Assembly (NCBI RefSeq): GCF_003018255.1
Contig: NZ_CP027440.1
DNA length: 64,000 nt
Reading direction: 5' to 3' (one strand)
Source of the DNA: Escherichia coli
GTDB taxonomy: Bacteria > Pseudomonadota > Gammaproteobacteria > Enterobacterales > Enterobacteriaceae
Shown here: positions 7,719 to 8,482 of the stretch, piece after piece
Layout of the letters: each line of letters begins with the position of its first letter
Numbering within the stretch: the stretch's first letter is position 1
Made by a program: the position numbers and the translations under genes
Notes under the pieces: generated by a model
What the model saw: the letters and a program-made list of their open reading frames with translations, nothing else
The model's database searches: none
Told to the model about the DNA's origin: nothing

Positions 7719-7949
7719 AGCGTGCGTGTTCCAGTTGCGAATTACGAAGGAAAGCGTTTCAATTCAATAGATTGTTGTAATTATCAACTATTTTTGAATT
7801 AACGACCGGCAGTATATCATTGAAACGGACCTGAAAGCAGCCAAAGCGGTCGCGAAAATGTAAAATTGTTGTTGGATTGTGCCATTTTATCGTTCTGCGC
7901 TGTGATCTGGCTGTAACAATACTTTTTCAAAATGCATTACGGATAACAT

Positions 7950-8482
7950 CTATGGTCCTGTGCAAAACATGTTATCGGTGATGAGATCGGTTTGAAACTG
8001 ACAGAGTTGGTTTTCCGCGCCGCCGATGGGCGGGTTGCGCAGTAAAAGCTGTGGATAGTGAGTTTTAATCGCCCGATAGATGACAGGAAGGACCTGGGCC
8101 CCGACCGAGGGGGAGGGCGCAATAGTTATCGTCCGTTGCTTATCATAGCTTCCTTCGATATCCAGCGCGCCAAGAATGGACTCAAGTCCCTGAGTGATAG
8201 ACTCATATAGATGCATCGCAAATGCGGTAGGAGTGACACCCTGGCCTTTGCGAATAAACAATAGGTCAGGGAATATAACGCGCAGTTTCTGAATAGGCTG
8301 ATAGATTGCCGAGGGGGGCAGATTAAGCACTTTCGCTGCATTAACGATTCCTTTATGGACATATGCAACTTCAAAATAGTCAGAAGGGTAAGATCAATAT
8401 TTCGTAAGGTTGTAAATATTTGTGGTTTACCTTCTGACGATTTTCTGCTTAAACAGGGTTCAATTTGATTATTACTATCCAC
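7950..8482 (-). pseudogene. ybeF: LysR-family regulator ybeF, disrupted (frameshift in the HTH region plus C-terminal truncation)
   Basis: N-terminal 36 codons in one frame (8482..~8375), LysR HTH continues in another frame (FEVAYVHKGIVNAAKVLNLPPSAIYQPIQKLRVIF) after an in-frame TGA at 8394-8396; frames switch at an A4 run 8373-8376; combined reading ends at 7950, about 178 codons versus about 300 for LysR proteins. Confidence 0.65.

Follow-up and report, generated by a model that had tools for sequence, protein, structure and literature searches.

A frameshifted and internally deleted ybeF remnant between lipA and lipB in Escherichia coli

The DNA analysed in this work (the window) is a stretch of 64,000 nucleotides from an E. 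coli chromosome (contig NZ_CP027440.1), in which a remnant of ybeF sits between lipA and lipB. Counted from the lipA start at 7718 to the lipB stop, which begins at 8742, the interval between both genes measures 1023 bp, versus 1420 bp in K-12-type genomes. It contains no long open reading frame and holds two short ones, of 118 and 126 amino acids, in two different minus-strand frames. No Rfam family matched within 6000-10000, and promoter-like and terminator-like matches within 7600-8900 were not in excess over shuffled sequence. The features of the locus, by position in the window, are as follows.

6753-7718, minus strand: lipA, intact, the 3' neighbour of the ybeF remnant
7927-8482, minus strand: ybeF pseudogene remnant, 556 nt, placed by alignment to K-12-type ybeF and by the PGAP call in strain JNE23-011
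7927-7929, minus strand: ancestral TGA stop of ybeF, now out of frame (7927 is its last base)
7950-8330, minus strand: 126-aa open reading frame
7950-8375, minus strand: second frame, 141 codons, with the remainder of the HTH, then the linker and the beginning of the effector domain
7960-7964, minus strand: junction left by a 397-bp deletion, where the 5-bp microhomology TGCAC (plus strand GTGCA) occurs once
8105-8113, minus strand: direct repeat CCGAGGGGG of 9 bp, downstream copy, which the window has kept
8126-8482, minus strand: the sole open reading frame that can be read from the native start (118 aa; 36 authentic and 82 out-of-frame residues)
8309-8317, minus strand: upstream copy of CCGAGGGGG, with a start-to-start spacing of 204 bp
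8313-8318, minus strand: run of six G (C6 in the coding sense), A plus C5 in K-12 and C7 in the ST131/SE15 type
8373-8376, minus strand: frameshift site, four A on the plus strand (T4 in the coding sense), T5 in intact alleles
8375-8482, minus strand: N-terminal 36 codons in the native frame (VDSNNQIEPCLSRKSSEGKPQIFTTLRNIDLTLLTI), from translation
8394-8396, minus strand: TGA that shuts the second frame 5' of the HTH
8480-8482, minus strand: native GTG start of ybeF
8742-9383, minus strand: lipB, intact, the 5' neighbour of the ybeF remnant

As the intact reference we used ybeF of K-12 (b0629; 954 nt, 317 aa), annotated as a putative LysR-type DNA-binding transcriptional regulator, and the window was aligned to the K-12-type locus. 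Both share the position, the strand, the GTG start and the upstream region, and the 556 retained nucleotides are colinear; in contrast to K-12, the window lacks one nucleotide of the T5 run, a further 397 nt and an uninterrupted reading frame. The arithmetic is exact, since 954 - 1 - 397 gives the 556 nt that separate 7927 from 8482 inclusively. Outside the deletion, identity to K-12-type loci over the lipA-lipB interval is 95-96%.

The first lesion is the loss of one T from the T5 run, by which CTGACTATTTTTGAAG has become CTGACTATTTTGAAG and the frame shifts after codon 36, inside the wHTH. Up to that point the predicted protein equals residues 1-36 of K-12 YbeF save for N32T. The second frame, which reads (stop)SYPSDY FEVAYVHKGIVNAAKVLNLPPSAIYQPIQKLRVIF and continues through DNMFCTGP(stop), closes at the TAG at 7950-7952 and lacks a start codon 5' of the HTH, its first start being the GTG at 8330, within that domain. 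Read together, the two frames amount to 177 codons (36 + 141). The second lesion is an internal deletion of coding nucleotides 520-916 of 954, which takes out codons 174-306 and shifts the frame by itself, 397 not being divisible by three; the last 11 original codons and the stop are still there, out of frame. Intact ybeF has two copies of TGCAC at the boundaries of this segment, at coding nucleotides 520-524 and 917-921. The initial annotation of this stretch had described ybeF as frameshifted and truncated, and both the alignment to intact ybeF and the PGAP call at the JNE23-011 locus bear this out. Its split after 36 N-terminal codons with the HTH in the neighbouring frame agrees with our data in all coordinates and peptide strings, the TGA at 8394-8396 before the HTH was recovered by translation, the proposed A5 to A4 slip matches the T5 of intact alleles, and the 1023-bp interval was found again, as was the end of the combined reading at 7950 (about 178 codons had been given, 177 were counted). 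The truncation needs to be rephrased: the gene is indeed shortened, not at its 3' end, as the original end is kept, but by the internal deletion. Similarly, the effector domain, which had been regarded as lost, is mostly but not wholly gone, with about 57 of its residues (116-173) remaining in the remnant.

With one nucleotide lost from the T5 run, translation from the native start misses helices of the wHTH and ends after 82 junk codons. The deletion between the TGCAC copies, which removed codons 174-306 of the effector-binding and oligomerisation domain, probably arose by recombination, or by slippage during replication, at this short repeat. Each of these lesions, and each of those that mark the more decayed remnant alleles discussed below, coincides with a homopolymer or with a short direct repeat, presumably the expected mark of slippage or microhomology-mediated deletion. 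The region upstream of ybeF (8483-8741) is kept with few changes, and the 231 bp 5' of lipA (7719-7949) are nearly the same as in K-12. Because these two regions are so well kept, lipA and lipB are not expected to suffer from the ybeF lesions. Transcription of the remnant may persist, and a 118-aa junk peptide may be produced.

The domain content was assessed with Pfam. In K-12 YbeF, HTH_1 covers residues 31-89 and LysR_substrate residues 116-316. In the window, the second frame matched a partial HTH_1 (PF00126) alone, over profile positions 7-59, no match to LysR_substrate (PF03466) was obtained in the window frames, and the 118-aa open reading frame from the native start contained no Pfam domain. 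On account of these results, neither an entire DNA-binding domain nor an entire effector domain is predicted in any product, and a YbeF product able to bind DNA or to sense an effector could probably not be made. A functional LysR-type regulator has its wHTH in frame with the start, a complete LysR_substrate domain and a single open reading frame of about 300 aa; here the wHTH is split after codon 36, codons 174-306 are deleted, and the longest frames, of 118 and 126 aa, are not the same frame. On the other hand, the position between lipA and lipB, the common strand and the colinear nucleotide homology identify the locus as the orthologue of ybeF, and it carries the disabling lesions of a pseudogene relative to intact orthologues (a frameshift and a large internal deletion) together with relaxed constraint, seen in its dN/dS and in further independent indels in sub-lineages. 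Taken together, we consider, with a probability of about 0.95, that ybeF in the window is an old, non-functional and vertically inherited remnant of a LysR-type regulator.

The spread of the remnant was surveyed in 5426 complete E. coli genomes, in which the lipA-lipB interval was searched by megablast. The interval was matched in 5424 of them, the other two having no match to it, and fell into two length classes, one of about 1420 bp with an annotated ybeF and one of about 1023 bp or shorter. The 397-bp segment is missing from 1053 of the 5426 genomes, and a 166-nt probe that spans the junction is fully covered in 1051. Thus the ybeF lesions are common to about 19% (about one in five) of complete E. 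coli genomes, and ybeF is intact in about 81%. That the two lesions come back in about 1040-1050 other complete genomes reflects homology rather than chance. Carriers include Nissle 1917/EcN, UTI89, 83972, SE15, ST131 isolates, UPEC 26-1, strain O18 and E2348/69; Nissle 1917, UTI89, 83972, SE15, ST131 and E2348/69 are strains that we take to be of phylogroup B2. Intact ybeF was found in K-12, O157:H7, E. coli C, APEC O78 and APEC O2-211, the last of which is of ST117 (PMC6256689). Two further genomes carry ybeF lesions independent of the B2-type allele: NZ_OZ547461.1 keeps 67% of the 397-bp segment with a split annotation, and NZ_CM147848.1 matches 18% of the lipA-lipB interval, with nothing annotated there.

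The carrier alleles form a nested series. The allele of the window and JNE23-011, whose ybeF loci are 100% identical, is the least decayed, with T4, C6, the 397-bp deletion and the 204-bp segment between the CCGAGGGGG copies kept; it is rare, at about 32 genomes by subtraction and fewer than 76 by ranking. The pseudogenes of B2 strains (SE15/ST131 on one side, Nissle/UPEC 26-1/E2348/69 on the other) have in common with it the T4 run, the 397-bp junction and most allele-specific SNPs; they differ from it in C7 or a 204-bp deletion, where the window has C6 and is undeleted. The C7 allele of the SE15/ST131 type, found in about 622 genomes, has its extra C 59 nt 3' of the T4 site, and the Nissle/E2348/69-type allele, found in 386 genomes, has lost an extra 204 bp exactly between the two CCGAGGGGG copies. 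The decay of ybeF is stepwise, with a 1-nt loss and a 397-bp deletion, followed by either an extra C or the 204-bp loss. C7 brings back the original frame after 20 scrambled codons, yet within the HTH and 5' of the 397-bp deletion; this restoration could reflect chance slippage or a trace of selection that preceded the deletion.

Once the frame is repaired, the window and K-12 are separated over codons 1-172 by 18 non-synonymous and 9 synonymous changes (dN/dS 0.61), and the comparison with ybeF of ST117, which presumably belongs to phylogroup G, gives 0.65. The intact genes of K-12 and ST117 compared with each other give 0.075 over the same 172 codons and 0.10 over the full gene. The remnant therefore evolves in a near-neutral way. 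At 353 shared sites, remnant alleles differ mutually at 7-10 positions; remnant and intact alleles are 25-28 positions apart, and pairs of intact alleles 1-4. Four substitutions are private to the window allele. An intact close relative of the remnant allele was sought among the genomes and none was found. ETEC L5_E1779, the one inspected of 22 weaker matches, was considered as such a relative and set aside, as it has a K-12-like allele with one coincident SNP.

These values bear on whether the remnant might be a functional short regulator or small protein, such as an HTH-only repressor or the product of the 126-aa frame, under selection in B2. This would be compatible with its persistence in about 1000 genomes rather than full deletion, with the retained upstream region, and with the extra C of ST131-type alleles, which resets the original frame 20 codons past the T4 site. 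However, a dN/dS of 0.61-0.65 argues against a selected short protein, and in 386 genomes the remnant is missing another 204 bp of its central part. In addition, the HTH is split, its sole internal start (GTG 8330) lies inside it, no frame has a complete Pfam domain, and the lack of Rfam matches around the locus likewise speaks against a non-coding role. We regard a selected short product as very unlikely.

Even less probable, to the point of being hardly credible, is that a homopolymer error in sequencing or assembly produced the frameshift in a gene that is otherwise functional. Errors of this kind typically appear as 1-nt indels in short homopolymers, and four genomes with the B2-type allele do have T5 and not T4. 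Against this, the exact T4 context was found in 1035 of the 1041 genomes that match a 40-nt probe for the window allele, which are independent and come from many groups and platforms. The T5 version of the probe was perfect in just four genomes; as it also seeds in T4 genomes through its 30-nt right flank, matches were scored by identity band (100% versus one gap). The T5 genome inspected, FCI5, has both the 204-bp and the 397-bp deletions, and the 397-bp deletion by itself wrecks the effector domain and shifts the frame. The T4 call in the window is based on its identity to JNE23-011 and to some 1035 other genomes, and a lesion private to the source strain is ruled out by the presence of the deletion in 1051-1053 of 5426 genomes. 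The ybeF lesions are thus neither a sequencing error nor private to the source strain. The initial annotation had proposed that reference ybeF genes with the same frame structure would speak against a lesion; taken literally, about 1040 genomes have these frames, but they are annotated pseudogenes. PGAP labels the JNE23-011 locus as a pseudogene, "frameshifted; incomplete; missing C-terminus", and makes a pseudogene call also in isolateI, EcN, SE15, UPEC 26-1, an ST131 strain and E2348/69. With about 1040 matching genomes, the readings as a sequencing error or a strain-private change fall and the pseudogene stands. A phase-variable locus was also considered and rejected: the run is just 4 nt and equally long in 1035 of 1041 genomes, and the 397-bp deletion cannot be reversed.

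Full-length ybeF is the ancestral form, because it has the canonical LysR architecture, because ybeF lies between lipB and lipA also in Salmonella, Klebsiella and Enterobacter (PMC4398509), and because the LTTR core of Salmonella includes YbeF (PMC12994799). That the short form came first and the 1420-bp form arose by insertion elsewhere in E. coli has nothing in its favour beyond the existence of two length classes and can be dismissed as next to impossible, given that the extra 397 bp complete LysR_substrate (profile positions 5-207 of 209) in one 317-aa frame, that the intact form is present in about 81% of genomes and in strains as diverse as K-12, O157:H7, APEC O78 and ST117, as well as at the same position in other genera, and that the microhomology present twice in the long form occurs once at the junction.

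The lesions probably arose once, on the stem to the phylogroup B2-type alleles and later than the divergence of the ST117 lineage, in which ybeF is intact, and the remnant would have reached the mosaic background of the window via descent or homologous recombination. The closest overall match of the window is JNE23-011, with 99.3% identity over 24 kb, and most of 1-36 kb is identical between the two, except for recombination patches at about 9000-14000, with 8-23 mismatches per kb, and in a B2-like tract at about 3500-5000, where 3501-4000 has 44 mismatches per 500 bp versus JNE23-011 and is nearly identical to Nissle-type B2. The portion at 18-33 kb is identical to the ST117 strain APEC O2-211. 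With flanks that are mosaic in this way, the remnant may have come to the source strain by descent or by recombinational import, and an attempt to place this strain in a single phylogroup from the flanks gave no clean assignment.

Previous work on K-12 indicates what the loss of ybeF may entail. Deletion of ybeF changed the expression of 67 genes, with lrhA down 3.5-fold and the FlhDC iModulon up, and no direct target was established (PMC9068703). CitR (YbdO), a paralogue about 30% identical to YbeF, is like YbeF tied to the neighbourhood of the citrate lyase cluster, and deletion of either regulator lowers lrhA (PMC9068703). Encoded at a different locus, CitR is a possible functional back-up for the lost YbeF. 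Carriers would be expected to have the phenotype of a ybeF null and, by analogy with the wiring of K-12, lower lrhA and a higher FlhDC regulon. It seems rather unlikely to us that the loss of YbeF was a regulatory change fixed, and possibly adaptive, on the B2 stem; if it was, and if the K-12 wiring holds, the ybeF pseudogene would add to the distinctive regulation of motility and adhesion in B2, which is rich in ExPEC, and LrhA also controls type 1 fimbriae. No paper on a lineage-wide loss of ybeF was found in the literature searched. The pseudogene itself is already recorded by RefSeq annotation in every carrier locus examined, and in this sense it is real but ordinary. Nevertheless, a conserved enterobacterial LysR regulator is dispensable in a large, medically important part of E. 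coli. The carrier strains are natural ybeF nulls for work on YbeF, LrhA and FlhDC, and the length of the lipA-lipB interval (1023/1024 or 819 bp versus 1420 bp) may serve as a PCR or in-silico marker for B2-type alleles.

Other genes of the window also differ from K-12. The ybeM gene (deaminated glutathione amidase; 5526-6320, plus strand), two genes away from ybeF, is an intact 264-aa frame in the window and in the other strains examined, whereas K-12 MG1655 has it as the pseudogene b4581, and it is marked as frameshifted in a K-12-derived strain; its polarity is thus opposite to that of ybeF, with the broken copy in K-12 and the intact one in the window. At 22606-22650, between ybeL (22123-22605) and rihA (22650-23618), the window is without the K-12 block of about 8 kb comprising ybeQ-ybeR-djlB-ybeT-ybeU-djlC-hscC. 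Part of this block is present in SE15, with ybeQ as a pseudogene, and it is absent from JNE23-011, APEC O2-211, EcN and E2348/69. Finally, a 625-aa open reading frame lies between gltI and lnt (27375-29252, plus strand), for which related genomes carry the annotation rhomboid-family intramembrane serine protease; K-12 has no counterpart of it and carries IS5D at that site.
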